Part shown: one piece after another, positions 39,401-60,394 of the stretch
How the letters are laid out: each line of letters starts with the position of its first letter
How positions within the stretch are numbered: the first letter of the stretch is position 1
Notes under the pieces: generated by a model
Databases searched by the model: none
What the model saw: only the letters and a program-made list of their open reading frames with translations
What the model was told of the DNA's origin: nothing
Made by a program: the position numbers and the translations under genes
From: Minisyncoccota bacterium
GTDB lineage: Bacteria > Patescibacteriota > Minisyncoccia > JAHIHE01 > JAGLIN01
Direction of reading: 5' to 3'
NCBI GenBank assembly: GCA_041661265.1
Contig: JBAZUT010000001.1
Location: forward strand, 129,854-193,853
DNA length: 64,000 bases

Positions 39401-40106
39401 TGGAAAGTTTGGGAAGATCAACCTCTTCCAATACTTTTCTGATCGCGCCGGTTCCGATATCGGCTCTGAAAACCGAAGCATATTTCAAAGACAGAGTTCT
39501 GTATTCCATTTCAGAGATCACCTTCAATTTCTTGATGCTCTTCAGATCTTCTTTCGCTTTGTCCCTCGCTTCTTTGAGTTCGTTCAATTCCGGAACGGTC
39601 AATTTTGATTTTCCCGCCTTTGCCCTGGATTTATATTCCGCTTCTATCTGATCAGATACCACCTTTCTTTCCTCTTCGTTCACATTGGTAATGAGGTAGC
39701 TTGCAAAATAGACGACTTTCTCGAGATTCTGGACAGACATATCAAGCGTAAGACCGATGCTCGAAGGAACACCCCTGAGAAACCAGATATGCGCCACCGG
39801 AACGGCAAGCTTGATGTGCCCCATTCTTTCCCTTCTTACGATCGACTTGGTCACTTCGACCCCGCATTTATCGCAGACGATCCCCTTGTATCTTATCCTT
39901 TTGTATTTTCCGCAATAGCATTCCCAGTCTTTCGTCGGACCAAAAATTTTCTCGCAGAACAGCCCGTCCTTTTCAGGCCTCTGAGTCCTGTAATTGATCG
40001 TCTCGGGTTTCGTCACTTCCCCGGTTGACCACTCCAGGATCTCCTCCGGACTTGCGAGTTTAAGCCTTACGGCATTAAAATCTTCAACCTTAGTGTTTAT
40101 TGACAT
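36420..40106 (-). CDS. rpoC: DNA-directed RNA polymerase subunit beta'
   Basis: 1228 aa. Zn-binding CGVEVT near the N-terminus. Catalytic NADFDGD. Confidence 0.97.
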   Translation of the reverse strand: MSINTKVEDFNAVRLKLASPEEILEWSTGEVTKPETINYRTQRPEKDGLFCEKIFGPTKDWECYCGKYKRIRYKGIVCDKCGVEVTKSIVRRERMGHIKLAVPVAHIWFLRGVPSSIGLTLDMSVQNLEKVVYFASYLITNVNEEERKVVSDQIEAEYKSRAKAGKSKLTVPELNELKEARDKAKEDLKSIKKLKVISEMEYRTLSLKYASVFRADIGTGAIRKVLEEVDLPKLSRKLEKDLDEIPNASAQRKKTMKRLRVVQGFIKAGIKPQWMCLDVLPVIPPDLRPMVQLDGGRFATSDLNDLYRRVINRNNRLKKLIELGAPEVISRNEKRMLQEAVDALIDNSARKGQATMAATGKKRQLRSLADMLKGKQGRFRQNLLGKRVDYSARSVIVIGPTLRLDQCGLPKKMALELFKPFVMKELIERGFAYNVRSANKLIEQGINEVWDILEEVIQNKAVLLNRAPTLHRLGIQAFYPVLIEGKAIQIHPMVCKAFNADFDGDQMAVHLPLTEEAQKESREIMLSARNLLKPATGDPIVTPSQDIVLGCYYITKMIDGKKGEGKAFNNFDEAIMSYELGMIDLVSKVKLKTSVIKDYPSKYLTAEEKSGKYIETSVGRIIFNNSLPDELRFINKVMDSSSLKAVVADSLELLGAEKTVLLVDKIKELGFYYATRSGISWGMDDLKIPGEKKAIFKEADGKIEEIRNQYEEGLLTNNERRIKAIEVWTAVKNTISKMTPGTIGEASPVAYMINSGARSNWAVITQMTGMKGLVVNPSGETIELPIKSSYKEGFNVLEYFISTHGTRKGMADTALRTSTAGYLTRRLVDVAQDVIVHEHDCGDPTSMEIIAEEHEDIGRRLSMRIAGRTAFADIKNPKSGKAIVKAGGQISKDDAKLIEKLGVKSVFVRSVVDCKTRRGLCQMCYGFDLGRNKMVEIGQAVGIVTAQAIGEPGTQLTMRTFHSGGVAGKDITQGLPRVEEIFEARLPKGKAVIAEVDGKVDEIEEGLEKKTIKIKFNPGVEALSAKEKVDDIRSYTVTKDTALLVNKGDLVTIGQQLVEGHVDLQELFLLKGIEAVKKYIIKEVQQVYTAQGEGIDDKHIEIIIRQMLSRVRIKDPGDTNLLIGDVVEKAQLLDANDRVLADNKKNKAITDKIKKKATHDQILLGITKASLTTESFLSSASFQETARVLINAAITGKEDKLRGLKENVIIGRLIPSGTGYKGRIAQGE

Positions 40107-40155
40107 GATTTATGAAATTATAAATAAATTTATTGAAAATTTTTGTGTCCGAAAA

Positions 40156-43100
40156 CTACTTTGCTTCCTTGGGTTCGGCTTCCGCGATCCCCTCTTCCGG
40201 AATTTCAACTTTCTTCGCACCCATCAGCTCGACGTCGAGAGCAAGCGCCTTGAGCTCGTTCACAAGAACATGGAACGAAGCCGGAACATGCGGACTTTTG
40301 ATCTTCTCTCCCTTGATTATCGATTCATAGGCCTTGGACCTGCCGAGAACATCGTCCGACTTTATGGTCAGGACTTCCTGCAAAGTGTGAGCCGCTCCAT
40401 ATCCTTCCAGCGCCCAGACTTCCATTTCTCCGAATCTCTGTCCGCCAAATTGCGCTTTTCCTCCGAGAGGCTGCTGTGTTATCAAAGAGTACGGACCGAT
40501 AGACCTCATATGGATCTTGTCCTCGACCAAGTGGTTCAGTTTCATTATATATACGATCCCGACCGTCACTTTGTTGTCGAATTTTCTCCCGGTCTTGCCG
40601 TCATAAAGATCAACTTTTCCGTCGGTCGGAAGTCCCGCTTTTTCAAGCTCGCGTTTTATTTCCCCTTCGGTTATTCCGTCCAGCGCCGGGCACGCAACCT
40701 TATAACCGAGCTTCTGAGCGGCCCAGCCAAGATGCGTTTCAAGGATCTGGCCGATGTTCATACGGCTGGCGACTCCCAACGGATTCAGGATGACATCAAC
40801 CGGGGTTCCGTCCTCGAGGTATGGCATATCTTCAACCGGAAGGATCTTCGAGATGACACCTTTGTTCCCGTGACGCCCCGCAAGCTTGTCTCCGACCTGT
40901 ACTTTCCTGAGCTGCGCCACGCTGACCTGGATCGTTTTTATGATCCCCGAGGAAAGCTTGTCTCCCTGCTCTCTTGAAAATATCTTGATATCGACGACTT
41001 TTCCCTGTTCGCCGTGCTGCAGATACAATGAAGTGTCTTTCACGTCTCTCGCTTTTTCTCCGAAGATGGATCGGAGTAATCTTTCTTCCGCAGTCAGATC
41101 GCTTTCGCCTTTAGGCGTTATCTTTCCGACCAAAATATCTCCAGACCTGACTTCCGCTCCGACTCGGATGATCCCGTCTTCATCAAGATCTTTCAATTTT
41201 TCTTCTCCGACGTTCGGGATGTCCCTGGTGATGACCTCCGGACCCAGCTTGGTATCCCTGACATCGATTGAGAAATCTTCGATATGGATCGAACTGAATC
41301 GGTCATCTTCCACAACTTTTTCGGATATTATGATGGCGTCCTCAAAATTCGCGCCTTCCCACGGAACGAAGGAAACAAGAAGATTCTGGCCCAATGCAAG
41401 TTCTCCGTTCTGCGTTGCGGCTCCATCGGCGAGGATATCTCCCTTTTTCACCATCTCCCCTTTTCCGACCCTTGGGTGCTGGGTCATAGAGGTTGCGGAA
41501 TTGGACCTTACAAAATTATATAGATTATATTCATCGAATCCTGATTTATGCTTTATCTTTATATGAGAACCGTCCACCTCGACGACTTCTCCCGGCTCCT
41601 TGGCAAGGATCACATGCCCCGAATCGACTGCTGCTTTCATCTCAAGCCCGGTTCCGACAACCGGAGAATCCGGCAAAATGCATGACACGGCTTGTCGTTG
41701 CATGTTCGAACCCATGAGCGCCCTGTGCGCATCATCGTGTTCAAGGAACGGTATGAGAGATGTTGCGACGCTGATCGCCTGATTGGGAGACACATCGGCA
41801 TAATCGACTTCCTTCGCATTGATAATTCCCGGCCTGCCCTTGATCCTGGCTTGTACTTCCGTTTCAGTGAACTTTCCGCTCTCGTCAGTGGGAACGCTGG
41901 CATGCGCGATCGAAGCTTCTTCTTCAACCGCCGCATCGAGATATACAACCTCGTCTGTAACTCTTCCGTTGACAACTTTCCTGTACGGTGTTTCCAAAAA
42001 ACCAAAATCATTCACCTTGCTGTAAATCGAAAGATGTCCGACTAATCCGATGTTCGGACCTTCAGGGGTCTGAATCGGGCAGATCCTTCCATAATGGCTT
42101 CTGTGCACATCACGCACCTCGAACCCGGCTCTTTCCCTTGTGAGTCCTCCCGGACCCATGGCAGAAAGCCGTCTTTTGTGTTCAAGCTCGGCAAGAGGAT
42201 TGACCTGATCCATGAACTGGCACAATTGGCTGGACATGAAAAACTCCCTGATCACAGCAATGAGAGGCCTGGTGTTTATGAATTGAGCAGGGGTCGCCGT
42301 ATTTGAATCTATGGTGCTCATCCTGTCCTTTATATTCCTTTCAACCCTCATCAGCCCCAAGCGGAACCTTTCCTGGATAAGCTCTCCGACCGATCTCGTT
42401 CTTCTGTTTCCGAGATGATCGATATCGTCTGCCGAAGCATTTATGGAATTATTCAATTTGATGATCTCCTTGACCGCCAGAATAAGATCGTTCGGCTGGA
42501 AAACCCTATGCTCCACTTTATCAGCAAGGTCGATCTTCAATCTCTGGTTGATCTTGTGGCGTCCGACTTTTCCCAAATCATACCTGTCGAATTTGAAGAA
42601 CATGCCTTCGATCAACTGCTTGGCATTGTCAGATGTCGCAAGGTCTCCCGGCCTTATTCTTTTGTAAACCTCAATAAATCCTTCGGCCTGTGATTTGGCG
42701 ACGTCCTTCTTGATGGTTTCGGTTATAAACTTGATCTCTCCCGTATCAACATCCGAGAACAGCTTCAAGAGCTGTTCGTCAGTACCGTTCCCAAACGCTC
42801 TCATGAGGGATGTTATTGCAACTTTCCTTTTCTTGTCGATCCTTACAAAGATCGCTCCACTGGATTCCGTATCGATCTCAAGCCATGCGCCGCGCGTCGG
42901 GATCAATTTCGCCCCGAAGAATTTTTTCTCTTCCTTCTCGCTCGAGTAATGGAAAAACACGCCGGGCGATTTGATCAGCTGGCTCACCACGACTCGCTCC
43001 ACTCCGTTTATCACAAAAGTGCCCCGATCCGTCATGATCGGAAATTCTCCAAAATATATTTCCTGTTCCTTGGATGCTTTGGTTTTCTTGTTTATCAGGT

Positions 43101-43386
43101 TCACTTTGCATCGGAGCGGAGCTTCATATGAAATGTTTTTCTTCTTTGATGTTTCTTCGTCGTATTTTACTTTGTCGAGATAGTAATCGACAAATTCCAA
43201 TTCCAGTTCTTTATTAAAGCTGACCACCGGAGAAACTTCTTCCAGAAGTTCCCTGAGTCCTTTTTCGATAAACCACTTATATGATTGTATCTGCGACTCG
43301 ATCAGAAATGGCGGCTCCACCACTTCTCTTCTTTTTCTAAAAAATCTTCGCGTTGATCTTAATGGTAGCAGGTCTTTTTTGGGCAT
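40156..43386 (-). CDS. rpoB: DNA-directed RNA polymerase subunit beta
   Basis: 1076 aa. Conserved [19 protein letters not shown]. Confidence 0.97.
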
Positions 43387-48128: not shown

Positions 48129-50555
48129 CTATTTCGGCGTTTCAACCAAAAGCTCTGCACCATTTCCACTCTGTTCCCCTATGCCATTACTCTGAATATT
48201 CTCAAGAACTCCGCCTGGAACCTCTTCTTTCATTGGCAGGAGCTGTTTTTCTTCGGCGATCGGTTTTCCTTGTTTCAAGTTCGATAAAATTTTCTTGATG
48301 TCTTCATTGTCCGGATTCAGTTCGGATATCTTCTTGAATTGTTCGATCGCCAGATCCTTTTTGCCCTGTTCGTCGAATATCAATCCGAGTAAATATCGAG
48401 CATTGGAATATTTATCATTCAGAGCAACAGCTCTTTCAAGTTCAAATTGAGCCCTTGCTATCTCTTTTTTATCATAATAGATCGCTCCAAGCTGGTATGC
48501 CAGACCGCTGTCATAAGGTGCAATATTTTTTGTTTCTTCAAGTTTTTGAATCGCTTTATCAACCTCATTCTCGCGCATAAAGATCATGGCGATCTGGAAA
48601 TGCGCCGGCGCATAATTGCCATTAAGGGCAATGGATCTTTCAAGAGCTGACATCGCCTGGTCGAGTTTATCGCTCCAAACGCTATTAATGACCAATTTTT
48701 CCCCCTCCTTATTTTCTTTTTGAGAATCCAGAAGTTTAATTTTGTCGGCAGAAGTTAATAACGTCCTGGCTAAAGCAAACTCGAGCTCGAAATTCTTAGG
48801 GTCTCTTTTCAAAGCTTGTTTATAATTATTTTCCGCGAACAAGTCAGACCCATCAACAATAGGAATTATCTGCTCATAAACGTTGGCAAGATTCGCCCAG
48901 TTCAAAGAATCAGCAGGATTGATCACGGTCGCTTTCTGTGCAACTTGCACTGCAAGGGCTATATCATTTTGGATCCTCGCATTTAATATATCCGGCGCTG
49001 TCTTATCTTCCTTTGATGCTTCATTTTTTGCACCTAAAATTAGAGACTGGCTCGCGGTTCTAAGATATAGATCGGAGTCCGGATCAAGTTTGATCGCAAG
49101 GTCGAGATTTTTGAGCGCATCATCGATGCTGCTTGCTTCCAGTCCTTTTTGATAATAGACAGCTGCAGCATATTTCTGGCTCGAAACAAGAAGAATAGCC
49201 AAATTTCCGGTTATGCAAACAACTATTATGATAAAAATTATAAATGAAAAACTCTTTGATGTTCTTTCAAGAGAAATATAGCTATGTGTCCGGCTAAGCG
49301 TCGAAATCAACCCCAACCCGATAAATATGGCTAGCATCTGCACGAAAAATGAATTAAAGACAAACCATCCGGCTGCAAGAAATAAGATCCCGAGGGAAAT
49401 GGGAAACAGCTTGCCTTTTGTTCCGTTTCTTATAAGGAACACGGCCAGATATATTACCAAAAAAGCCAGCAGCGCAGCTCCAAGAATGCCAAAAGTTGAG
49501 ATAGCTGTGGAAAGAAAGCTGTATCCCTCAATAAACCTGACCGACCAGAAATCAGTGTTGTTGAGCTCTATTGGCCTGCTTGATGAAAAGGCATAGCCGA
49601 AAGTCGAAGGTCCGGAGCCTATCATTATGTTTTTTGCCGAAAAATTATATTTTACAACATCAAGAGTTGAGGAGAGATTCGGCTTGACCTGAACCGGAAG
49701 ATCGGCAAAAGGCGGAAGCGACACGCTAATCACGAAAAGAAGGAATGAGATGATCATCACGAGAAGGGGTATTTCCATTCTTCCGATTTTTTGACTGCTT
49801 GCCGTATGGGGTTCATGCGGATCTATTGATTCGGAAAATTTTCGGGCGACAACAAAAAGCATCGCGACTGAAATTGCTGCCCATAAAAATCTCTGATTTA
49901 AAATGATAAGATTCGAAAGGATCAAAAGACCTGTCATTGCCAAAACAATTTTTGGCACCATCGTTAATTTAAATTCGGACAATATGGCAATGATCAGAAC
50001 AAGCGCAAACGATATGAAAAAGCCAAAATCGAAAGTCATGCCCATTATGTTGAATCCGGCATTTTTTGCAAATTCAAACGGCAGATAAAAATATCCCCTC
50101 ATCTGAAGAAGGCTCAGGATCAAAACTGGAACAATGCCTGCAATGAATGCTATCCCTATGAAAACAAAATCTTTTTTCCTGAACAATGTCGATGAAATTA
50201 TAAAAGCGATAAAATAGACCAAAAAGCTCATCAGACTGTCCGATTGGTACAGGTTTCCGAAAAAACTTACGGTTTTCGCATCGGAAAAAGCGGCGCTTAT
50301 GCCGACCGAAACAAAAACAGCAAGAACTAAAATCGCAAAAATTGACCTTGGAAAGATGATCGTTTTCGTGGAAATTGCATTTAAAAGATAGAACGTAAAA
50401 GAAAAGATCACGAGAAAAAGCGCCATATATTGTTTGTTGATCTCAACCGGCAGAATAGTCAGTGGAAGAAAGAACAGGGGCGTAAGAAAAATTACAAACA
50501 GGAAAATAGTCCTGCTTATATTTGCTAATTTTCCATCTTGGAATTTTGAAACCAT
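48129..50555 (-). CDS. polytopic membrane protein (O-antigen ligase / Wzy-like, >12 TM) with C-terminal TPR repeats
   Basis: The 808-aa N-terminal two thirds are hydrophobic helices. The C-terminus has several TPR-like units, for example AIQKLEETKNIAPYDSGLAYQLGAIYYDKKEIARAQFELERAVALNDKYSNARYLLGLIF. Confidence 0.6.
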   Translation of the reverse strand: MVSKFQDGKLANISRTIFLFVIFLTPLFFLPLTILPVEINKQYMALFLVIFSFTFYLLNAISTKTIIFPRSIFAILVLAVFVSVGISAAFSDAKTVSFFGNLYQSDSLMSFLVYFIAFIISSTLFRKKDFVFIGIAFIAGIVPVLILSLLQMRGYFYLPFEFAKNAGFNIMGMTFDFGFFISFALVLIIAILSEFKLTMVPKIVLAMTGLLILSNLIILNQRFLWAAISVAMLFVVARKFSESIDPHEPHTASSQKIGRMEIPLLVMIISFLLFVISVSLPPFADLPVQVKPNLSSTLDVVKYNFSAKNIMIGSGPSTFGYAFSSSRPIELNNTDFWSVRFIEGYSFLSTAISTFGILGAALLAFLVIYLAVFLIRNGTKGKLFPISLGILFLAAGWFVFNSFFVQMLAIFIGLGLISTLSRTHSYISLERTSKSFSFIIFIIIVVCITGNLAILLVSSQKYAAAVYYQKGLEASSIDDALKNLDLAIKLDPDSDLYLRTASQSLILGAKNEASKEDKTAPDILNARIQNDIALAVQVAQKATVINPADSLNWANLANVYEQIIPIVDGSDLFAENNYKQALKRDPKNFELEFALARTLLTSADKIKLLDSQKENKEGEKLVINSVWSDKLDQAMSALERSIALNGNYAPAHFQIAMIFMRENEVDKAIQKLEETKNIAPYDSGLAYQLGAIYYDKKEIARAQFELERAVALNDKYSNARYLLGLIFDEQGKKDLAIEQFKKISELNPDNEDIKKILSNLKQGKPIAEEKQLLPMKEEVPGGVLENIQSNGIGEQSGNGAELLVETPK

Positions 50556-50757: not shown

Positions 50758-51027
50758 TTACTCCCACTTTCCCCAGCGTCCTTCGATAAGTTTTAGCTTC
50801 TTCTTTCGGCTCCAATCTTTTACTTGTATTTCTTTTTTTCTTGCCATCTCGAGATTTTCATATTCTTCCAGATAAACTATTTTCTTTGGCTTATGTTTTG
50901 ACGTAAATTTAGATCCTGATCCTGAAATGTGCTGAGTCCATCTTTGATCTGGCTTCCACGTCATTCCAGTATAATACAAACCATCTTCACATTCTATAAT
51001 ATATACGTACCATTTCCATTTTTGCAT
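50758..51027 (-). CDS. GIY-YIG nuclease-domain protein (YhbQ/Slx1-like small stand-alone)
   Basis: WYVYIIECEDGLYYTGMTWKPDQRWTQH contains the GIY...YTG motif. 89 aa. Confidence 0.7.
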   Translation of the reverse strand: MQKWKWYVYIIECEDGLYYTGMTWKPDQRWTQHISGSGSKFTSKHKPKKIVYLEEYENLEMARKKEIQVKDWSRKKKLKLIEGRWGKWE

Positions 51028-51166: not shown

Positions 51167-54100
51167 CTAATTATTTTCAAAATATGAAGACGCGTCCGAA
51201 TTGGTATTGTCAACGTCGATTATTTGATCGTTTGGATCCGCAATATTTGATTGGCTCTCAGTCTCATTTTTATTCAGCAATTCCTGCAACTGCGACTTAT
51301 CGACACAGACATCATCGACACATAACTTTTTCGTGGTAATCTTTCCGAATGTCCATTCCCCTGCCGTTGCAATAGTGCCGCTCAAAGACGTCAATGCATC
51401 TTTCACGGCACTTGCCACCAAATCTTTGAAACTCTGGTTCTGCCCGAGCGAGACGATAATTGCTTCGCCGCTAGAATCGATAATATTTCCACTTGGATTA
51501 ACTGCGAGCTTTAATTCTTCGATTTGTTTTTTCTGTTCCTTAATGGCATTTATCATAATAAAGGTCAAAGCATGAGAATTAAAATTAAACAATTCTGTTT
51601 CTTGTGCATCGTCCGAATGCAGTTTAGTCATATAACTACTGACCGTATATGGCGCAACATCTTTTATTTCCTGCGCCAAAACTCCGATATTTTCTTTTCC
51701 ATCTGCCGTAAAACCCGCTAATCCATTGTATTTATACCAAATAGGATTTATTTTTTCAATCACAGAAAGACCATCGCTAAAAGGCGTTATGTCTTTTTTT
51801 ATCCGCTCATCCGAAGCAATTGTCCATGTGTTCGTCGAAGGTTTGGCTGCCGAATCGGTAGAAAGCTGAAATTGATATGTCGGCGTCAAGCCGATACCAA
51901 CATATCCTGCATCAGTAATTCTCATTCTTTCTGATCGTGTCGTCCCCCCAGCCGCAGTTGTGGCAAACAGCATATAAGTTCCTTGTGCGGAATCAGTCCA
52001 GTTCTCCGCCGCTTTCATCATAATTACCGCTTTACTCCAGGCAGAAAATCCGGTAGCGCCATAACCTTTTGCCCCAAATACGCCTAAAAGATCATCAAGC
52101 TGACTCGCTGTCGGAGAAGCTTGTGTGCCGCGTGCCGAAGCACCATAAAATGACCCGGCAAAAGTTGCACCATAAGTAGTAGTATTTACAATCGCATTAT
52201 CTCCATCTTTTTGTATATCAAGACTATAAGCTGGCGTCGTAGTTCCGATGCCGACATTGCCTGCATTATCAATTCGCATTCTTTCGTTAGTTGCAGCAAG
52301 CCCGCCAGTAAAAAACTTAACAACGCCAGCAGTATTCCTCGATCCTAAGACAAGTCCTCCCGAATCTAAACTATCAATATAACTAGTATTCGCTGTCAAA
52401 ATGCCATTAGTTGTAAAAGAAGTATTTAAATGAAAAATATCTAACGCTTTATTACTATCATCTTCCGTCAAACGAAAAGTTTCATAAGCAGCAGTTCCTG
52501 CTGTCGCGTTTCTAACAGTCAAATAAGTGCCGGAGTTTTGATCCTTTTGCATATATAGAAGTGATGCTGGGTTTATGACCCCAATCCCCACATTCCCCCC
52601 TGCAAAGATTGCGGCATAATTATTTGTTCCACCGGTCGGAGTATCAACATACAATCCATAATTATTGGCGCTGGCGCCATTCCATGTTCCAGTGGAGGAA
52701 ATATAGGCGCCATATTTATTGATGGAGGCAGTGGAGGAAGTGGCTGTGTTGGCAAGATAAGCGCCATAATAGGCGGCGGTTTGAGCGCCAGAAGCGGAAA
52801 TGGATAATTTTTTATTCGTTGGGGCAGTATCGCCGATGCCGACATTGCCTGAATTATCAATTCGCATTTTTTCCGCATTGCCGCCAGTTGAAATTTTTAT
52901 AATACCGCTTGCATTATTAGCCATCAAATTCAAACCGGCTGCAGTTGAATATAAATAAGCATCGCTGGCCGCGATCGCTCCGAATGCTGTGGTTGATGCG
53001 GAATAAATGCCGATTTGATTTTGCAAACCCGTATCGTTTGATACTCTTATATTTGCAGAAGCCGCCGCGCCAGCCGTAGTATTTTCAACAAGAATTTTTG
53101 TAGAGGCGTTTTGATTTTTAATAATATGCAATATTTCAGTTGGCGCTGTTATTCCAATTCCAACCTTATCGCTAAAATACGCCGCAGCATTAACGCTGCT
53201 TCCGCCTGTTGGCGCGTCAACATATAAACCATACGCATTTGTACTTGTAGACGCGCTGGTTGCTATCTTTAATCCGTAAAGATTTGTCAGTGTTCCGCTA
53301 TTACCCTTTCCCGGAGGAGTAACAAGAATAGTAGCGGCGTCCGCAATATTTTCCGTACTGCTTCCGGCAGTCGGCGCAAGATTTAAGCCATACACGCTGC
53401 TGCCCGAACCTGGAGTAAGAACAGAAACTAAGCGCATGCCTACAGCATTTCCTGCAGAAGAGAAATTTGTAGATACGTTAAACAATGTAGTACTATAAAC
53501 TGACCCAAACGAAATTTGCCCCGATGCCACGTTTAATGCCGCATCCGGAGTCGCCGTTCCGATTCCAACATTTCCTCCGGCAAAAACTGCAGCGTAATTA
53601 TTTGTTCCGCCGGTCGGGGTATCAACATACAATCCATAATTATTGGCGCTGGCGCCATTCCATGTACCGGTGGAGGAAATATAGGCGCCATATTTGTTGA
53701 TGGAAGCGGTGGAAGAAGTGGCTGTGTTATTAAGATTGATTCCATAACTGGCTACTGTTGTCGCACCAGTCGGCTCAACATCTAACCAACCATCAGGCGT
53801 AATATCATTTATACCAACATATCCTGATCCGCGAATAGTCAGTAAATTTACTCCACCGACACGAAAATTAAAATGACGCGATGCGCCTTCTGCTGCGCCA
53901 AAACCAAAATTCATCACAGGATCAGTTCCATTTATAGATAGCGTAGAAACATTAACTATACCGGCACTAGAACTATTTGTAATGTCTATCAAACTAACCT
54001 GTGGATTAACTGATGATAACTGCAAAAGAGATGTCGGCGTCGCCGTCCCGATTCCGACGTTGCCATTCTCCACAATCAATCCATAATTATTCGTGGCTCC

Positions 54101-55768
54101 GGATGCCGAGAAATATCCACCGACGTTGGTTGTGCCAGCTCCGGTATTGACGGCGTATAATCCGTAATCGATTCCGACGGTAGCCCCTGACTGAGAAATA
54201 TTAAGAGCCTTATTTAAATCGGTAGTAGAAGATGAAGCGACCGAGAAAGCATTGCCAGTGCCTGTATAGGTTTGGGTAAAAGTTCCAGTTCCGGAAGCAA
54301 GAGAAAAATTAGAATTATTTTGCACAGTCACCGCACCATTGGAAGTCAGGCCGGAAGTGGCAGTAATGAGTCCGGAAATAGTTGGGACAGCAGTCCAAGC
54401 CGTGCCAGTAACAGTTAAGTTGCCGCCAAGAGTGGTAAGTCCGGTGCCGACGGTAAAAGTATTCGTACCCGTAACGGAAGTGGCGCCGTTCAAAGATACA
54501 GCGCCGGTACCGGTGCCGAAAGTACCGGTACCAGATATAGAAAAATTTCCTGTCGCTTGAGTATAACCGGCAATCGCTGCAATTTGACCGGAAGAATTAA
54601 CTTGAAATTGAGAAGTGGTCCCAACTGTAAATTGAGAATCCGGCACAGCATCGCCGATACCAACATTGCCATTAGCTAAAATCGTAAATGGATATTCAAA
54701 TGATCCTATAGCACCCGTTCCGACGTTTTTATGCATCACCTGCCAGCTACCGCTATTGTCTGCAGTTGTGGTCATAGAGTTTGTCCAGGAATCATTCAAA
54801 TCATTTCGTCTATACCATGTTAAATCACTGGCTTTAAAATAAGCATTTGCGGAAACATCAACATAGCCGTTTCCTCCCAGATTTAAAGACAGCATATCTA
54901 AAGATCCCTGAGACGTTCCAATGATAGCGTTCGTTTGCGCTGCTGTTCCGTAAACATGCAATTTTTCGCTTGGCGAAGCCGTGCCAATCCCCGCCCGACC
55001 ATTCAAAGCATCAATAGTTAAAGTATCCGAATCAACATTCAATGCATTGGCAACATTGGCAAGCGTCCAAGTTGAAGCGGAAGCAGCCGATAAATTTAGC
55101 GCGCCACTAGATGCAATGCTGGGAATTCCAGTCATTGCGCCGGCAGTAGAAATATCCCAACTTGAAGAATCAATCGCCACCGTGGCAGAATTATTTCCAA
55201 CAGTAGTGAGTCCGGTTGAAGAAAAGGTCGTGAACGCACCGCCGGCCGGAGTTCCGGACCCGATTGCGTCCGGCGCCGCCCATGTTTTTCCACCAAGCTG
55301 TTTCGCTTCAAAAGCCGCCGGCACCGCGCCAAGCGCTTTGCGAGGAGTCAACGTCTCCCATGAAGGCGTCGCTGCCGAACCCCCGACTTGCACTTCCAGA
55401 TATAAAGTCTGGTTGAAATTAACACTCGCTAAACTGGAAACGCCGCCTGCCAAAACACTGAATAACCCATTTGATACTGAAACTCTCTGATCAGTTCCCG
55501 TTCCATCACAAGTTGTTCCGGAATCCGGACTATAGCAAAGCGTTTCAATCCAAATCGGATCAGTGCCTCCGGCGCAATTCGATGCCGTGCAAAGTCGGAA
55601 TCTGATGTTGTATGATCCATTCGGAACACTGACGCCGCTTGTATTCGTCAGCTTTCCCTGATAATTGATTTTCTCGTTAAATGCTGCACGGACAACGTCA
55701 AAACAACCGAAAATCAAAACGGCTGCTAGCAAAACTAGAATAAATTTTCTATCGATACAGCTCTCCAT
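51167..55768 (-). CDS. 1533-aa secreted beta-rich repeat protein with C-terminal intramolecular-chaperone auto-processing domain (peptidase S74; phage tail-fibre / endosialidase-type)
   Basis: Signal peptide ILVLLAAVLIFGCFDVVRA. Internal near-identical 40-aa repeats (ASINKYGAYISSTGTWNGASANNYGLYVDTPTGGTNNYAA, twice). The C-terminal segment NTWTIASDERIKKDITPF...IGVLAQEIKDVAPYTV...ALTFIMINAIKEQ matches the S74 chaperone domain, including the SDxR(I/L)K auto-cleavage motif. Confidence 0.8.
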   Translation of the reverse strand: MESCIDRKFILVLLAAVLIFGCFDVVRAAFNEKINYQGKLTNTSGVSVPNGSYNIRFRLCTASNCAGGTDPIWIETLCYSPDSGTTCDGTGTDQRVSVSNGLFSVLAGGVSSLASVNFNQTLYLEVQVGGSAATPSWETLTPRKALGAVPAAFEAKQLGGKTWAAPDAIGSGTPAGGAFTTFSSTGLTTVGNNSATVAIDSSSWDISTAGAMTGIPSIASSGALNLSAASASTWTLANVANALNVDSDTLTIDALNGRAGIGTASPSEKLHVYGTAAQTNAIIGTSQGSLDMLSLNLGGNGYVDVSANAYFKASDLTWYRRNDLNDSWTNSMTTTADNSGSWQVMHKNVGTGAIGSFEYPFTILANGNVGIGDAVPDSQFTVGTTSQFQVNSSGQIAAIAGYTQATGNFSISGTGTFGTGTGAVSLNGATSVTGTNTFTVGTGLTTLGGNLTVTGTAWTAVPTISGLITATSGLTSNGAVTVQNNSNFSLASGTGTFTQTYTGTGNAFSVASSSTTDLNKALNISQSGATVGIDYGLYAVNTGAGTTNVGGYFSASGATNNYGLIVENGNVGIGTATPTSLLQLSSVNPQVSLIDITNSSSAGIVNVSTLSINGTDPVMNFGFGAAEGASRHFNFRVGGVNLLTIRGSGYVGINDITPDGWLDVEPTGATTVASYGINLNNTATSSTASINKYGAYISSTGTWNGASANNYGLYVDTPTGGTNNYAAVFAGGNVGIGTATPDAALNVASGQISFGSVYSTTLFNVSTNFSSAGNAVGMRLVSVLTPGSGSSVYGLNLAPTAGSSTENIADAATILVTPPGKGNSGTLTNLYGLKIATSASTSTNAYGLYVDAPTGGSSVNAAAYFSDKVGIGITAPTEILHIIKNQNASTKILVENTTAGAAASANIRVSNDTGLQNQIGIYSASTTAFGAIAASDAYLYSTAAGLNLMANNASGIIKISTGGNAEKMRIDNSGNVGIGDTAPTNKKLSISASGAQTAAYYGAYLANTATSSTASINKYGAYISSTGTWNGASANNYGLYVDTPTGGTNNYAAIFAGGNVGIGVINPASLLYMQKDQNSGTYLTVRNATAGTAAYETFRLTEDDSNKALDIFHLNTSFTTNGILTANTSYIDSLDSGGLVLGSRNTAGVVKFFTGGLAATNERMRIDNAGNVGIGTTTPAYSLDIQKDGDNAIVNTTTYGATFAGSFYGASARGTQASPTASQLDDLLGVFGAKGYGATGFSAWSKAVIMMKAAENWTDSAQGTYMLFATTAAGGTTRSERMRITDAGYVGIGLTPTYQFQLSTDSAAKPSTNTWTIASDERIKKDITPFSDGLSVIEKINPIWYKYNGLAGFTADGKENIGVLAQEIKDVAPYTVSSYMTKLHSDDAQETELFNFNSHALTFIMINAIKEQKKQIEELKLAVNPSGNIIDSSGEAIIVSLGQNQSFKDLVASAVKDALTSLSGTIATAGEWTFGKITTKKLCVDDVCVDKSQLQELLNKNETESQSNIADPNDQIIDVDNTNSDASSYFENN

Positions 55769-55983
55769 TTTTTTCTTTTAAGAGCTCTACCAATTCTGGA
55801 CTATATTCTCTTATTTGCCTTAATTATACAACAAAAACAACAGTTTGTGAAACTGTTTTAGCATTCTGACCAAGTTTATTGATAAAGCTGGAAAATTCTT
55901 ATTGAAGCCAAAACTAGCCTTGTTGCCTTGAACAACTTGAAAGAATTATAACAATGCCGTCATTGCATGACCATTTTTTAATC

Positions 55984-57336
55984 TCATACTACCCCACCGT
56001 CCATTTTATTTTTTTGTTTCTTTCGATCGCGCGGCAGTCGCTTTATGATCTTGTATAATATAATTATCAATATAAAAATGATAAGCGGGAAAATGTAGTT
56101 TGTTGGAGAAAAGCGGCTTTCCGGAGGTTTTGTTGTGATCGTTGGCGACAGGCTGCCATTTAGCGCCTTTATTATCCTATTCTCTTTGTCCAATAGAACT
56201 ATGGTTATGTCAAACGAACCTTCTTCTGAAAGCTTGATCGATGCAGAATACCCCCCTCCTTGTTCGTCTTTTTTCATCAAATATGAATATTCCTCATTCT
56301 CTCGAGTCAGGATTATCATGATCGAGCCAATCTCTTTTGGGATATTTGTCGAGTCAACAACAACAACGATCTCTTTCCCCTGATCGATCTCTATCCTTCC
56401 TCCTTCAAGCTTTATCGTTGAGCCGTCTTGAATAAAATTAAAATCATCGATCGTTATTTTTTCGATGTCCGGAAGTGTTTCTGGAGGCAAAAGAGGTTCT
56501 CCCGGAGGGAACTCAGGCCGTATTTCAGGCGGTATTTCAGGAGGACCTTCTGGTTTTTCGGGAAGAAGCTCCGGCTTTTCCGCAGCGGGTTTGTCGGGAA
56601 TCGCAGATGCAACCGCCCCTGAAGATATATCGTTGAATTCATCAAAAGAAAAAACAGTATAATAATATCTTGTTCCATTGATGAGATCCTCATCGACAAA
56701 AGATCTTTCTTTTCCTGAATATATTTCAAGACCCTCGCTTGTGTTTTTTGGATAAAATATTTCGCTTCTCTGGATAACGAGCTTGTCAAAATCCTGTCCG
56801 AAAGGATTATTCCAGGAAAGCGCTATTTTGGAATCCCCCGCAATTGCTTTAAGACCGCTTACATTTTCGGGAGATATTTTTTCAGAAAGCGTCTTGAAGC
56901 TATATCCGTCCTTTATTCCCTGGTTTCCGGCACTATCGGTTGATCTGATCTGGAAGTAATAAACGGTATTTCCCCCAAGATCTCGGATCTCGATCCTGTG
57001 CGATGAAACCAGGCTCTCCGCGTGATCCTCAAGAACGCCGATTTCATATGACAATGTTTTTCCATAATACAAATATGCCGAAGAGTTCTCGTTTGTTCTC
57101 CATCTTATATCCGCCCCGGTGAACGATATATCATCAATTTCAACTGCAAATATTTGAGGAGGATCTGAATCAATAATGGGGGCACCGCCTCCGGGATTTG
57201 CAACCTCTCCGGAAGGAACACTTGCCGAAATATTAACCCGATCCTCTTGGGCATCTGATATTTTTACTGCGAATGAACCGGGCAATAAGACTATTATAAA
57301 TATTTTTACCAGTAATTTGATCGATTTATTCCGCAT
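55984..57336 (-). CDS. membrane-anchored surface protein: signal peptide, FN3-like domains, Pro/Glu-rich linker, C-terminal TM anchor
   Basis: FN3-like PPQIFAVEIDDISFTGADIRWRTNENSSAYLYYG...TVYYFQIRSTDSAGNQG. Linker PEKPEGPPEIPPEIRPEFPPGEPLLPPETLP. C-terminal FPLIIFILIIILYKIIKRLPRDRKKQ. Confidence 0.7.
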   Translation of the reverse strand: MRNKSIKLLVKIFIIVLLPGSFAVKISDAQEDRVNISASVPSGEVANPGGGAPIIDSDPPQIFAVEIDDISFTGADIRWRTNENSSAYLYYGKTLSYEIGVLEDHAESLVSSHRIEIRDLGGNTVYYFQIRSTDSAGNQGIKDGYSFKTLSEKISPENVSGLKAIAGDSKIALSWNNPFGQDFDKLVIQRSEIFYPKNTSEGLEIYSGKERSFVDEDLINGTRYYYTVFSFDEFNDISSGAVASAIPDKPAAEKPELLPEKPEGPPEIPPEIRPEFPPGEPLLPPETLPDIEKITIDDFNFIQDGSTIKLEGGRIEIDQGKEIVVVVDSTNIPKEIGSIMIILTRENEEYSYLMKKDEQGGGYSASIKLSEEGSFDITIVLLDKENRIIKALNGSLSPTITTKPPESRFSPTNYIFPLIIFILIIILYKIIKRLPRDRKKQKNKMDGGVV

Positions 57337-57483
57337 TGAGATTTATTAATGTTTTGTTTGGAAATACTGCTCGGCGCCTTCATTAAAAAAGAAATCCCGA
57401 ATTAAGCTTCCTGGAAACAAATTATGGTATTTTTATTGAGATTTGCGTTCATCAATTTGCCGGGGGCAAATATTTTAACGTCA

Positions 57484-58500
57484 TCATTGCGCAAGCTGAA
57501 CGTGTTTCTTGATGATCCATCTATTGTATTTTTTGATCAAAGTTGCTGAAGAGATCAGGATAATTATTATAAAAAGCGCCGAAAACAAGATCGCCTTCCA
57601 TGGAAAAACCCAAAAAACAAGCTCTTTTGAAAGAAACTTTCCGTTTCCGTTTCCATAGACTACATCCAATCGAGCCGTATATTTTCCAAAAGCAAAATTT
57701 CCAAAGTCATATTTAACTTCTTCAATGAATTTATTTACGGGATCTGACGAATATTTCAGATCATCCCCCCATTGTGACTCAATTTTTCTTATGTTCTGAG
57801 GAAGTATCCTGTTGTTCTTTGAATTGGCATCAAGAAGCACTGTCCTTTTTCCGAAAATGTTTTTTATTTCTATGTTCCCTTTCGGCCTGATGTGCACATT
57901 TCCTTGATTGTTCATCCTATAGACAAATTTAACAGGAAGACTGCTTAGCAACATGCTGCCATACTCCAAGTTGAAATTGTCAATCGAGGCGCTTTCTTTC
58001 ACATCGCCCGATACTTGAAGGAGAATGAGAGAGTTTATTTGCGATTGAATGCCGACGCCTGATTCTTTGTTTTCGTCAGCCTCCGTTACTCCCGTACTGA
58101 AATAGATCGAAGCATAATGACCTCCGGGATCCGCATCCGAAGGAATGTTAATCGTAAATATGAATTTTTTCGCGCTCTTGGGGCGAACTGCGATCTTGTC
58201 TTCGTTATATCTAATCCATCCCGCAAGATCGATATTCTTATCAGCTTCCACCGGAATAAATTTTTGATATCCCTCTTCTCCGGTCATTTCAAAATTCATC
58301 ACCCCGACAGAATATGTCCTTTCTTTGTCTGTTTCATTGTCAATGATAATCGATCTCTCTATGGCGACCCCGGGATCCACTGCAACGTCAATAACCGGAG
58401 GGGAAATCGAAACTGCGCTCGCTTCATGCTCCGCATTCAAAAGAATCGCGAAAAACAACGAGCTGCCTAAAATTATTTTCTTTATTTTGTTGAATATCAT
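57484..58500 (-). CDS. DUF916/DUF3324-like cell-surface protein (PapD-like fold family associated with WxL surface clusters), C-terminal TM anchor
   Basis: Signal peptide. SISPPVIDVAVDPGVAIERSIIIDNETDKERTYSVGV...PGGHYASIYFS. C-terminal TM WKAILFSALFIIIILISSATLIKKYNRW. Confidence 0.55.
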   Translation of the reverse strand: MIFNKIKKIILGSSLFFAILLNAEHEASAVSISPPVIDVAVDPGVAIERSIIIDNETDKERTYSVGVMNFEMTGEEGYQKFIPVEADKNIDLAGWIRYNEDKIAVRPKSAKKFIFTINIPSDADPGGHYASIYFSTGVTEADENKESGVGIQSQINSLILLQVSGDVKESASIDNFNLEYGSMLLSSLPVKFVYRMNNQGNVHIRPKGNIEIKNIFGKRTVLLDANSKNNRILPQNIRKIESQWGDDLKYSSDPVNKFIEEVKYDFGNFAFGKYTARLDVVYGNGNGKFLSKELVFWVFPWKAILFSALFIIIILISSATLIKKYNRWIIKKHVQLAQ

Positions 58501-59028
58501 AATATGCTTGAAACCACATAAGTTATGATCTGATCATAGCTTCCCGCCTGGGTCGCCGTAGAAATCGCAGTTTCGTGAGTGATCAAGGTCGTGCCATCGG
58601 TATCTCCCGTTCCCAGCATGTCGACATCCTGAGTTCCGTTGGAAGAGAAGATGACATCCATATTGGGTTCTCCAACGGGAATGGGAGTGTCGTCGTCGTC
58701 GAACGGCGATTGCTCAGTCCAGGTCGTAGCCGTTCCAGCTGCTCCGGCATTGGTTGGAGAAGCGACAGTAATTCCGTGGCCCTCGGTTCCGGCAGAAACC
58801 GTCCCATTTTCCGCGATATCGTCTATGTCGATGGAAGCAGAAGCTTGATTAAGCTGATCATCCGCCCAAAGTCCCACCTGAAATCCCGCAGATGTGCTTG
58901 CGCCGATCTTCAGTCTATACGAGCAGGAAGAAACAGAAGACGTGCTCAAGGTTCCCAGGGCGCAGGCATTGGTGTCGGCAGTTTCAGCTGAGTTTCGGAT
59001 GGCAAAGGTCAATGTTCCGGGAACTTCA
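58492..59028. repeat. 537-bp perfect direct repeat, copy 1 (3' ends of two paralogous genes plus downstream 5 bp)
   Basis: 100% identical to 59640-60176. The ORF-track nested ORFs at 58575/59723 and 58583/59731 are identical. Confidence 0.9.
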
Positions 59029-59615
59029 GCGCTAACAGTAACTTGATCATCATCGACTGTCGTTGTGATTGGAACATACAAGGTGCCCGTTCCGCCAAAA
59101 GTCCCGCTTGTTACTATACTATAAGTTCCCCCAGCTGTCGGAGTGATCGGCTGCTTATCAGCTGCTGCGGCTACATTCGTTCCAATTTTTATTGTTATCA
59201 CCGATCCGGAAGCAATAGAAACCGGGGTCGCGGCAGGCTGAGTAAAAGTTATTGCCGAAGCTGTAACTCCAACCCCGAGAGTGGAAGCCGCCGGACTGGC
59301 AGCAAGAGCGACGTCCGCAACGTCATCTATGAAATCAATGTCGGAAAAGTCCAGATCATTTCCGCTGCCATTTATATCGAAATCGCTTTGGTAGGTTATG
59401 ATCATTGTCTGATCGGCAGAACTGAATGCGTCATTTATGGTAAAGGTAAGAATTTGGCTGTGATTCTCGCTTGGACCGATCCTTGAAAGCTGGATCTGCG
59501 CCGAAGAGATCACCGCTCCTTTTGCCGTCTGAATCGGAGATGAAATAATGTTCATCGCAAAAATCAGCACGAAAATCATGGCCGAAGCAATGATTTTTTT
59601 TGTTTTATGATGCAT
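58497..59615 (-). CDS. secreted Thr/Ala/Gly-rich protein with conserved 177-aa C-terminal domain (paralogue 1)
   Basis: Signal peptide IIASAMIFVLIFAMNIISSPIQTAKG. The C-terminal 177 aa are identical to those of 59645-60394. Confidence 0.7.
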   Translation of the reverse strand: MHHKTKKIIASAMIFVLIFAMNIISSPIQTAKGAVISSAQIQLSRIGPSENHSQILTFTINDAFSSADQTMIITYQSDFDINGSGNDLDFSDIDFIDDVADVALAASPAASTLGVGVTASAITFTQPAATPVSIASGSVITIKIGTNVAAAADKQPITPTAGGTYSIVTSGTFGGTGTLYVPITTTVDDDQVTVSAEVPGTLTFAIRNSAETADTNACALGTLSTSSVSSCSYRLKIGASTSAGFQVGLWADDQLNQASASIDIDDIAENGTVSAGTEGHGITVASPTNAGAAGTATTWTEQSPFDDDDTPIPVGEPNMDVIFSSNGTQDVDMLGTGDTDGTTLITHETAISTATQAGSYDQIITYVVSSIL

Positions 59616-59639
59616 GTTGATTGATCAATGATTTATTAT

Positions 59640-60176
59640 ATCTTTTATAATATGCTTGAAACCACATAAGTTATGATCTGATCATAGCTTCCCGCCTGGG
59701 TCGCCGTAGAAATCGCAGTTTCGTGAGTGATCAAGGTCGTGCCATCGGTATCTCCCGTTCCCAGCATGTCGACATCCTGAGTTCCGTTGGAAGAGAAGAT
59801 GACATCCATATTGGGTTCTCCAACGGGAATGGGAGTGTCGTCGTCGTCGAACGGCGATTGCTCAGTCCAGGTCGTAGCCGTTCCAGCTGCTCCGGCATTG
59901 GTTGGAGAAGCGACAGTAATTCCGTGGCCCTCGGTTCCGGCAGAAACCGTCCCATTTTCCGCGATATCGTCTATGTCGATGGAAGCAGAAGCTTGATTAA
60001 GCTGATCATCCGCCCAAAGTCCCACCTGAAATCCCGCAGATGTGCTTGCGCCGATCTTCAGTCTATACGAGCAGGAAGAAACAGAAGACGTGCTCAAGGT
60101 TCCCAGGGCGCAGGCATTGGTGTCGGCAGTTTCAGCTGAGTTTCGGATGGCAAAGGTCAAAACCGCATCCTCTTCC
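59640..60176. repeat. 537-bp perfect direct repeat, copy 2
   Basis: See 58492-59028. Confidence 0.9.
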
Positions 60177-60394
60177 ATCTGCCTATATCCGGCTTTTATT
60201 GTATAATTGGCGCTATCTGATGATCCTGTTCCAACTTCACCCGCCGTATCCTTCAAGTTATAATTGGCACTTTGTCCGGAATCCACTCCGCCGATGTTGA
60301 CCGAATCCTTCTCTATTTTATAATTAGCGCTTTCCATGCTTAGTGCCTGGAAAGGTAAAATCAGGCTAAAAATTATTAAAATATATTTATTCAC
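59645..60394 (-). CDS. secreted protein with three N-terminal SANY.(I/L)K repeats and the shared 177-aa C-terminal domain (paralogue 2)
   Basis: Signal peptide ILIIFSLILPFQALS. Repeats ESANYKIEKDSV, QSANYNLKDTAG and DSANYTIKAGY. C-terminus TFAIRNSAETADTNACALGTLS...YDQIITYVVSSIL. Confidence 0.7.
   Translation of the reverse strand: MNKYILIIFSLILPFQALSMESANYKIEKDSVNIGGVDSGQSANYNLKDTAGEVGTGSSDSANYTIKAGYRQMEEDAVLTFAIRNSAETADTNACALGTLSTSSVSSCSYRLKIGASTSAGFQVGLWADDQLNQASASIDIDDIAENGTVSAGTEGHGITVASPTNAGAAGTATTWTEQSPFDDDDTPIPVGEPNMDVIFSSNGTQDVDMLGTGDTDGTTLITHETAISTATQAGSYDQIITYVVSSIL

Follow-up and report, generated by a model that had tools for sequence, protein, structure and literature searches.

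Five consecutive genes on the minus strand of a 64,000-nucleotide (nt) stretch of DNA, hereafter the window, probably form a compact pilus operon of the Pam type, with the gene of a MAT-like adhesive fibre at its end. The window belongs to a metagenome-assembled genome (MAG) of Candidatus Paceibacterota, a lineage of the candidate phyla radiation (CPR), as an earlier note made from the sequence had surmised, and the cluster occupies positions 51167 to 60394 (all positions are those of the window unless a locus is named). That note had described a surface attachment apparatus in which a giant fibre is accompanied by four secreted or anchored partner proteins. A dedicated and conserved surface module was indeed found, but the four partners are a pilus system and not accessories of the fibre. 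They make up the full set needed for a pilus assembled by donor-strand exchange, namely tip subunit, pilin, chaperone and anchor or terminator. As a whole, the cluster is a divergent and minimal Pam-type operon with a MAT-like fibre that ends in a peptidase S74 domain, and both kinds of element have already been described.

The pam operon was defined in a study that included cryo-electron microscopy of the filaments of Candidatus Mycosynbacter amalyticus, and the NCBIfam models NF058579 and NF058581 derive from that preprint (bioRxiv 10.64898/2026.03.03.709456). Its pilins PamA, PamB and PamE consist of a nine-strand N-terminal sandwich, a linker strand that the following subunit receives, and a truncated immunoglobulin (Ig)-like C-domain. 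PamT, located at the filament tip, has the acceptor domain only. PamC and PamD are PapD/FimC-like chaperones with a C-terminal transmembrane (TM) helix, and PamR, which combines two fibronectin type III (FnIII) domains with a TM helix at the C-terminus and a strand at the N-terminus, was proposed to be the pilus terminator or anchor. A co-localised 'tail fibre-like protein' was recorded with the operon in the same work (bioRxiv 10.64898/2026.03.03.709456).

Components of the Pam-like operon

All five open reading frames were present as the earlier note had listed them, and each product carries a secretion signal, that is, an N-terminal hydrophobic leader judged by hydropathy and inspection by eye only. 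From the tip gene to the fibre gene, the intergenic gaps are 29, -4, 147 and 215 nt.

The first product, of 249 amino acids (aa), consists of a signal peptide, about 55 aa with three S-x-NY-x repeats, and an acceptor C-domain shared with the pilin; no linker and no donor-strand motif were found in it. It matched the PamT model NF058579 (CPR_pilus_PamT) with E 7.6e-16 and 58 bits over profile positions 12-169 of 241, and the pilin model NF058581 with E 3.9e-6. On these scores it is a distant homologue of PamT and not an equivalog. The signal peptide hinges on the GTG start codon at 60394, and a leader was present upstream of MESANY in all homologues examined. In the NCBI annotation, the gene product is 230 aa long from MESANY and the signal peptide is left out.

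The second product, the 372-aa pilin, has a signal peptide, an N-terminal beta-sandwich domain, a linker strand and, at its C-terminus, a Pam-pilin domain. Its AlphaFold2 (AF2) model showed two all-beta domains of the beta-sandwich type with a strand (aa 191-197) in between. The incompleteness of the C-domain, a truncated Ig fold, is predicted by the likeness to Pam pilins and is not readable from a monomer model. The isolated C-domain matched NF058581 (CPR_Pam_pilin_C, 'Pam pilus system pilin subunit') with E 7.8e-7 and 29.3 bits over profile positions 2-145 of 148. A pilin from a related locus, L023, passes NF058581 at 58.3 bits, and the window pilin family aligned with it collinearly from end to end (hhalign probability 98.2%, E 2.8e-14). 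The homology of the window pilin to Pam pilins is therefore transitive, by way of a full-length alignment with a pilin that passes the cut-off. Neither the pilin by itself nor the profile of its family found anything relevant among PDB sequences, in a PDB copy without the PamA and PamB structures.

The earlier note had reported an identical C-terminal domain in the first two products, and this was confirmed: a segment of 514 nt with abrupt borders, encoding the last 171 residues of both paralogues, is present in two copies with 100% identity. In related genomes, the C-domains of tip and pilin were 72-96% identical within a genome, compared to 70-86% between orthologues, which indicates occasional, episodic gene conversion between the two genes. 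The perfect copy in the window may also be an assembly artefact or collapse.

In the third product, the 338-aa chaperone, a signal peptide is followed by two beta-sandwich domains of the Ig-like kind and a TM helix near the C-terminus (hydrophobic within aa 293-325). An AF2 model built from a 20-sequence alignment (pLDDT, the predicted local distance difference test, 85.8) showed a leader helix, two beta-sandwiches and a C-terminal helix at 301-337. When this model was compared with the PDB by Foldseek, the best match was the WxLIP of Enterococcus faecium (9i1y/9i25, E 2.9e-12, approximately 274 alignment columns against a WxLIP chain of 267 residues). RbmA came next, followed by the chaperone-usher chaperones CfaA, CsuC, EcpB, Caf1M, FimC and DraB with E values of 1e-9 to 1e-7. 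In a search of PDB sequences with the chaperone family profile, EfmWxLIP1 was the sole significant match (E 7e-4). The earlier description of this protein as DUF916-like and TM-anchored agrees with both WxLIP matches and with a Pfam match to PF06030 (WxLIP_PGBD, the same as DUF916) below the cut-off (E 6.3e-5, 23.4 bits, cut-off 27.3); PF06030 is also present in the precomputed annotation of several homologues. DUF3324, which had been named along with it, gave no Pfam match on the 338-aa protein. Even at E <= 10, neither the chaperone nor the PamR-like protein was matched by an NCBIfam model. In L023, a chaperone homologue adjoins the pilin that passes NF058581. With its predicted PapD/FimC-like two-domain fold and C-terminal TM helix, the protein has the build of PamC and PamD. 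Relatives were found in at least 417 GTDB species genomes by a pattern scan of one genome per species, nearly all of them labelled Patescibacteria/CPR and some MAGs bearing other taxon names, and none was found on the 2.9 million viral contigs of IMG/VR that were scanned.

The fourth product, of 450 aa, has a signal peptide and a donor-like strand at its N-terminus, then two FnIII-like domains and, after a Pro-rich linker, a further beta domain and a C-terminal TM helix. The Pfam model fn3 matched above its cut-off (E 2.6e-6, 28 bits, cut-off 25), and a second FN3-like stretch matched Pur_ac_phosph_N below its cut-off (E 2.9e-6, 28.2 bits, cut-off 30). The TM helix corresponds to a hydrophobic stretch within aa 408-436 and the Pro-rich linker is readable in the translation, in line with the FN3-containing, Pro-rich and TM-anchored protein of the earlier note. 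Only weak FN3 matches were obtained in the PDB. With its tandem FnIII domains, its TM helix at the C-terminus and a putative strand at the N-terminus, this protein has the build of PamR.

Putative donor-strand motif and conserved gene order

Motifs of one class lie in the linker of the pilin and at the N-terminus of the mature PamR-like protein. They are described by the expression [VI]x[VI][STVID]Ax[VI][PQKE], which has a background of 0.25% per 50-aa window. Descriptively, this motif occurred in 37 of 93 pilin-like segments preceding the C-domain, in 1 of 96 chaperones, and in none of 43 PamT-like proteins. It was also present in short PamR-like relatives, as INVTASVP (L005), VNVSALVP (L014) and IDVDATVP (L041). 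The spread of the putative donor strand is as the donor-strand model predicts, in that the pilin would donate and accept, the tip accept only and the anchor donate only. A candidate donor strand in the fibre N-terminus, GVSVPNG, was dropped; the motif was absent from 32 of 32 fibre N-termini.

In the proposed mechanism, all five products would be exported by Sec, and the membrane-anchored two-domain chaperone would hold fresh subunits by completing their incomplete Ig-like C-domain. The PamT-like protein would begin the filament at the distal tip, because it has an acceptor C-domain and no donor strand. Pilins would then be added in series, with the linker strand VTVSAEVP entering the C-domain groove of the preceding subunit by donor-strand exchange. 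The PamR-like protein would cap the proximal end of the filament and tether it to the membrane, because it has the N-terminal strand VNISASVP, no acceptor domain and a C-terminal TM helix. Tip and pilin would have to take the same strand, so that their C-domains would be kept alike, to the point of identity in the window genome.

Gene order was followed in 83 loci anchored on chaperone relatives with 10-kb flanks, which were scanned with iterated hidden Markov models built from the window proteins. Of these loci, 81 had open reading frames with the C-domain, 72 had pilin N-domains, 45 had the PamT-N motif, 40 had a PamR-like protein directly after the chaperone, and 33 had the fibre N-domain. 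The same-strand order PamT-like, pilin, chaperone, PamR-like and giant fibre recurred across Patescibacteria, with PamR-like proteins of either approximately 450 aa or approximately 1100-1300 aa. When the 46 loci with adequate flanks were considered, a fibre gene was present in 24, and in 22 of these it lay downstream on the same strand. Fibre genes accompanied PamT-like genes in 21/26 loci compared to 3/20 loci otherwise (Fisher p 1.6e-5, with loci counted as independent and shared ancestry uncorrected). In the reverse direction, six of eight fibre homologues (five of the seven with S74) lay within 10 kb of Pam-like genes. These findings show that the genes are co-localised in related genomes, as the earlier note had expected.

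A single-sequence phmmer search with the S74 region of the fibre found no S74 domain in the 83 loci, a miss that reflects the low sensitivity of the search and the fact that most fibre genes run past the 10-kb flank, and not absence; Pfam detected S74 in the complete fibre of L075.

Another type of operon, in which a single pilin gene precedes two paralogous chaperone genes (approximately 308 and 333 aa), was seen in L048, L049, L051, L058, L061, L065 and L076, and no PamT-like, PamR-like or fibre genes were found within 10 kb in these loci. In a locus from Woykebacteria (L004, 11676-17587), Pam-like genes abut an ATP synthase operon, as Pam genes likewise do in the Pam preprint (bioRxiv 10.64898/2026.03.03.709456). 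No ATP synthase genes adjoin the cluster within the window.

The S74 fibre and neighbouring genes

The 1533-aa product of the last gene consists of a signal peptide, a conserved N-domain, repeats of the (E)RMRIxxxGNVGIG type and a C-terminal S74 chaperone domain of the self-cleaving kind. The earlier note had placed an S74 domain at the end of this protein, and PF13884 matched there with E 1.4e-11 and 44.9 bits (cut-off 22) over profile positions 1-57 of 58. The residues S1319-D-E-R-I-K1324 fit the SDxxxK catalytic Ser-Lys motif, and the domain aligned with the long tail fibre of phage S16 (6f45, SSDRRIKKDI) and with the cleaved fragment of phi29 gp12 (3gud), the N-terminus of which is SDERHKTDI. 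The fibre is predicted to trimerise through this domain and then to cut itself before Ser1319. Cleavage would free a C-terminal fragment of 215 aa and leave a mature fibre of approximately 1290 aa, the distal end of which would recognise a host or prey surface.

In the shaft there are seven repeats with G[NY]VGIG at their end, and (E)RMRI precedes several of them. MAT fibres of Bdellovibrio have a signal peptide, a conserved beta-rich N-domain of about 130 aa, a trimeric shaft, and either S74, for which self-cleavage was proven, or other tips (PMC10769870). The window shaft repeats matched the MAT fibre Bd1334 in the PDB (8oml and 8on4; E 6.6e-6 for 8oml), and the S74 regions of the window fibre and of a Bdellovibrio fibre shared 38% identity over 115 aa. 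By tblastn, the fibre was 24-30% identical to tail fibres of cyanophages and pelagiphages, and its NCBI name is 'tail fiber domain-containing protein'.

The N-domain of the fibre was common to 90 of the 120 best homologues, with up to 74% identity, whatever the C-terminal tip. S74 is present in about a third, and others have beta-propeller, LamG or other domains. Judged from these alignments, the family is one with a conserved N-domain and mosaic tips. The N-domain had no sequence relative in the PDB and no match in a Pfam copy that lacked PF26696, a family recorded in the precomputed annotation of a Bdellovibrio fibre. Between it and the Bdellovibrio MAT N-domain, collinear weak matches of 10 bits were obtained, which are suggestive of homology. 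In L091 (5361-7567 and 9001-13170), an S74 fibre homologue with the same N-domain stands straight after two type IV pilin-like (N_methyl) genes, a hint that fibres of this kind could be partnered with more than one sort of filament system.

Two small genes and one large gene around the cluster were followed in the related loci (Table 1). The 808-aa protein gave matches to TPR only, and its membrane part had no Pfam, NCBIfam or PDB match. In 10 other loci, relatives have Pam-like or fibre genes as neighbours, in 7 of these loci between the PamR-like and fibre genes, and in L086 a relative adjoins an S74 fibre with no Pam genes nearby; that it is an assembly or modification factor is speculation. 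The 123-aa protein matched Pfam HTH_17 only with E 0.096. Relatives of this protein occur beside Pam-like or fibre genes in L001/L005, L014, L034, L054, L089 and L090. In those loci for which gene order was determined (for example L001/L005, L014 and L034), they lie upstream of the PamT-like gene, and in L002/L003 the relative makes up the N-terminal end of a protein of 2189 aa with a Pam-type C-domain at its other end. Small GIY-YIG genes similar to that of the window were seen near fibre genes in L025, L077 and L090; their proximity could be due to chance, such genes being common in CPR genomes.

Elsewhere in the window, rpoB and rpoC lie at 36420-43386, 8-15 kb from the cluster, and no capsid, terminase, portal, tail or integrase genes were found in the surroundings of the cluster. 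Two other giant genes on the minus strand encode proteins without the fibre N-domain, a 1623-aa protein with fused GT2, GT2 and GT4 glycosyltransferase domains (161-5032) and a 3031-aa surface protein with Big_5, CarboxypepD_reg, fn3 and SH3_3 domains (26200-35295).

Table 1. Positions of the cluster genes, their domains and motifs, and adjoining genes in the window
Feature	Position	Strand	Remarks
PamT-like tip gene	59645-60394	minus	249 aa, GTG start
Major pilin gene	58497-59615	minus	372 aa
Chaperone gene	57484-58500	minus	338 aa
PamR-like anchor gene	55984-57336	minus	450 aa
Fibre gene	51167-55768	minus	1533 aa
Shared C-domain, copy 1 (pilin)	58499-59012	minus	NF058581 match
Shared C-domain, copy 2 (PamT-like)	59647-60160	minus	100% identical to copy 1
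Putative donor (linker) strand of pilin, VTVSAEVP	59019-59042	minus	aa 192-199, directly before shared C-domain
Donor-like motif at mature N-terminus of PamR-like protein, VNISASVP	57214-57237	minus	aa 34-41, same motif class as pilin linker
Conserved fibre N-domain	55244-55684	minus	approximately aa 29-175, shared among homologues
Peptidase_S74 core of fibre	51641-51814	minus	aa 1319-1376, Pfam PF13884
Sigma-70-like site, TTCACA, 17-nt spacer, TATAAT	55823-55851	minus	11/12 consensus match, in 215-nt gap upstream of fibre gene
Polytopic membrane protein with C-terminal TPR	48129-50555	minus	808 aa, recurrent neighbour
Small protein with HTH_17-like N-terminus and C-terminal TM segment	60659-61030	minus	123 aa, directly upstream of PamT-like gene
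GIY-YIG protein	50758-51027	minus	89 aa, E 4.9e-17, between fibre gene and membrane-TPR gene

Alternative readings and comparison with known systems

Several points weigh against the reading of the locus as a Pam-type operon with a co-encoded fibre. One chaperone and one pilin are encoded here, compared to two and three, respectively, in M. amalyticus, and no filament has been observed in any Paceibacterota. The 58 bits of the 249-aa protein lie far under the equivalog cut-off of 240 for NF058579, the 29.3 bits of the C-domain lie below the cut-off of 55 for NF058581, and the full-length pilin had no NCBIfam match, the isolated C-domain alone being matched. The confidence of the pilin model is moderate and its fold matches are generic. 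The chaperone and PamR assignments rest on architecture, fold and gene order because no NCBIfam model exists for either, and the donor-strand expression was composed after the sequences had been seen. The fibre has neither a donor motif nor an acceptor domain, and any contact with the pilus is hypothetical. Moreover, the promoter-like site ahead of the fibre gene, a consensus match only, means that the fibre may be transcribed apart from the four pilus genes.

A closer union of fibre and pilus is conceivable, and we regard it as rather unlikely. The S74 fibre would be attached by the conserved N-domain to the Pam-like pilus, or to the PamT-like or PamR-like component of the pilus, and the pilus would offer the host cell a receptor-binding fibre of the phage kind. 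The place of the fibre gene as the conserved last gene of the operon and its strong association with PamT-like and PamR-like genes would fit such an integrated organelle, as would an N-domain that is conserved among mosaic tips; the partner of the equivalent Bdellovibrio MAT N-domain is unknown (PMC10769870). However, the fibre lacks both the motif and the domain by which Pam subunits would be joined, its gene has a promoter-like site of its own, and it is absent from 22 of the 46 Pam-like loci with adequate flanks. Two of the eight fibre homologues had no Pam-like genes nearby, and one of these stands beside type IV pilin-like genes.

The likeness of the chaperone to WxLIP raises an alternative that we consider improbable, namely a WxL-type surface complex in which a WxLIP-like anchor holds a small and a large client at the cell surface and no filament is made. 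By fold and by sequence, the E. faecium WxLIP is the solved structure most closely related to the 338-aa protein, PF06030 is matched below its cut-off, and a canonical WxL cluster consists of one WxLIP with a small and a large protein that have a common C-terminal domain (PMC10599100), as is the case here. In contrast, the C-domain shared by the two clients fits the Pam pilin C model and had no Pfam match to WxL, the pilin is homologous over its full length to a Pam pilin that passes NCBIfam, and the donor-strand motif is present in both the pilin and the anchor protein. Homologous pilins make filaments in M. amalyticus.

That the S74 protein is a genuine phage tail fibre among phage proteins, in a prophage remnant or phage-derived cassette, is highly improbable in spite of the match of S74 and shaft repeats to phage tail fibres and of the GIY-YIG and weakly HTH_17-like genes that flank the cluster, because the context is chromosomal (rpoB and rpoC), virion and integrase genes are wanting, all five proteins have secretion signals, no relative of the chaperone was found on the viral contigs scanned, and the same operon is kept across many lineages of Patescibacteria.

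The reading of the locus as a Pam-type operon with a co-encoded fibre extends the Pam-type pilus past Saccharimonadia and Microgenomatia, with a stripped-down version of one pilin and one chaperone in Paceibacterota. The hosts of CPR bacteria are other microbes to which they attach, and how these hosts are found and held is largely unknown. That a pilus operon is found again and again beside a phage-like fibre with exchangeable tips suggests a way in which the host range of such episymbionts could be encoded and might evolve. The earlier note knew of no description of the gene combination and pointed to a chromosomal, Sec-secreted S74 fibre. Neither is without precedent, since the operon with its co-localised tail fibre-like protein has been described (bioRxiv 10.64898/2026.03.03.709456), and Bdellovibrio MAT fibres have the same architecture with proven self-cleavage (PMC10769870). 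What is added to the preprint is the Paceibacterota host, the Enterococcus WxLIP as closest solved relative of the chaperone, the conserved fibre N-domain with mosaic tips, the donor motif common to pilin and anchor, the homogenised acceptor domains and the recurrent neighbour genes. Three literatures without mutual citation are thereby connected, on CPR Pam pili, Firmicutes WxL/WxLIP clusters and Bdellovibrio MAT fibres, and residues that can be tested are named, namely VTVSAEVP and VNISASVP as putative donor strands and Ser1319 as the predicted site of cleavage.

A bolder proposal, which we hold to be doubtful, is that the fibre is the host-recognition head of the Pam-like pilus, its N-domain being docked on a Pam component, and that Pam and Firmicutes WxL/WxLIP systems are two branches of one ancient family, usher-less and with a membrane-anchored chaperone, in bacteria without an outer membrane. 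If such docking were true, a type of partner would be suggested for the orphan N-domain of the Bdellovibrio MAT fibres.

Among known systems, the tail fibres and endosialidases of phages (K1F endoNF, T5 pb1, phi29 gp12 and S16 gp37) resemble the window fibre in an alignable S74 domain and catalytic motif, and its shaft is distantly similar to cyanophage and pelagiphage fibres. In contrast to these, the window fibre has a Sec signal peptide and belongs to a chromosomal operon without virion genes, and its N-domain is unrelated to phage baseplate attachment domains. The S74 subgroup of the MAT fibres of Bdellovibrio bacteriovorus (8OML, 8ON4, 8ONC) is similar in its signal peptide, its conserved beta-rich N-domain, its RMRIxxxGxVGIG repeats and its C-terminal S74 domain with SDxxxK. 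Members of that group also swap S74 for other tips, and their genes are chromosomal in a bacterium that lives on other bacteria. The CPR fibre gene differs in standing inside a pilus operon, a setting unreported for Bdellovibrio, and in belonging to a monoderm envelope, and the homology of the N-domains is suggestive only.

The chaperone-usher pili (Pap/Fim, CFA/I and Csu) share with the window system the predicted chaperone fold, the proposed donor-strand complementation and exchange, and a tip that would accept and never donate. However, the window system has no usher and no outer membrane, its chaperone is membrane-anchored, its two-domain pilins would use an internal linker as donor and not an N-terminal extension, and sequence homology was not detectable. 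The WxL/Csc clusters of Firmicutes (PMC10599100; 9i1y, 9i25) likewise belong to cells without an outer membrane and encode one anchor-type protein with a small and a large client that have a common C-terminal domain; their WxLIP has two Ig-like domains and a C-terminal TM helix in 337-365 aa, compared to 338 aa here. They differ in that the window clients have no detectable WxL domain, an LPXTG protein and a DUF3324 match are missing, and WxL proteins are described as bound to peptidoglycan at the surface and not as filaments.

Compared to Pam of M. amalyticus, the window system has one pilin and one chaperone instead of three and two, divergent sequences below the NCBIfam cut-offs, identical C-domains in tip and pilin, and no adjacent ATP synthase operon. 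Its filaments are predicted only, and its host is a member of Paceibacterota, whereas Pam was described in Saccharimonadia and Microgenomatia. Both systems are restricted to CPR, and the parts list of the window agrees with that of Pam gene for gene, the neighbouring tail-fibre-like gene included.

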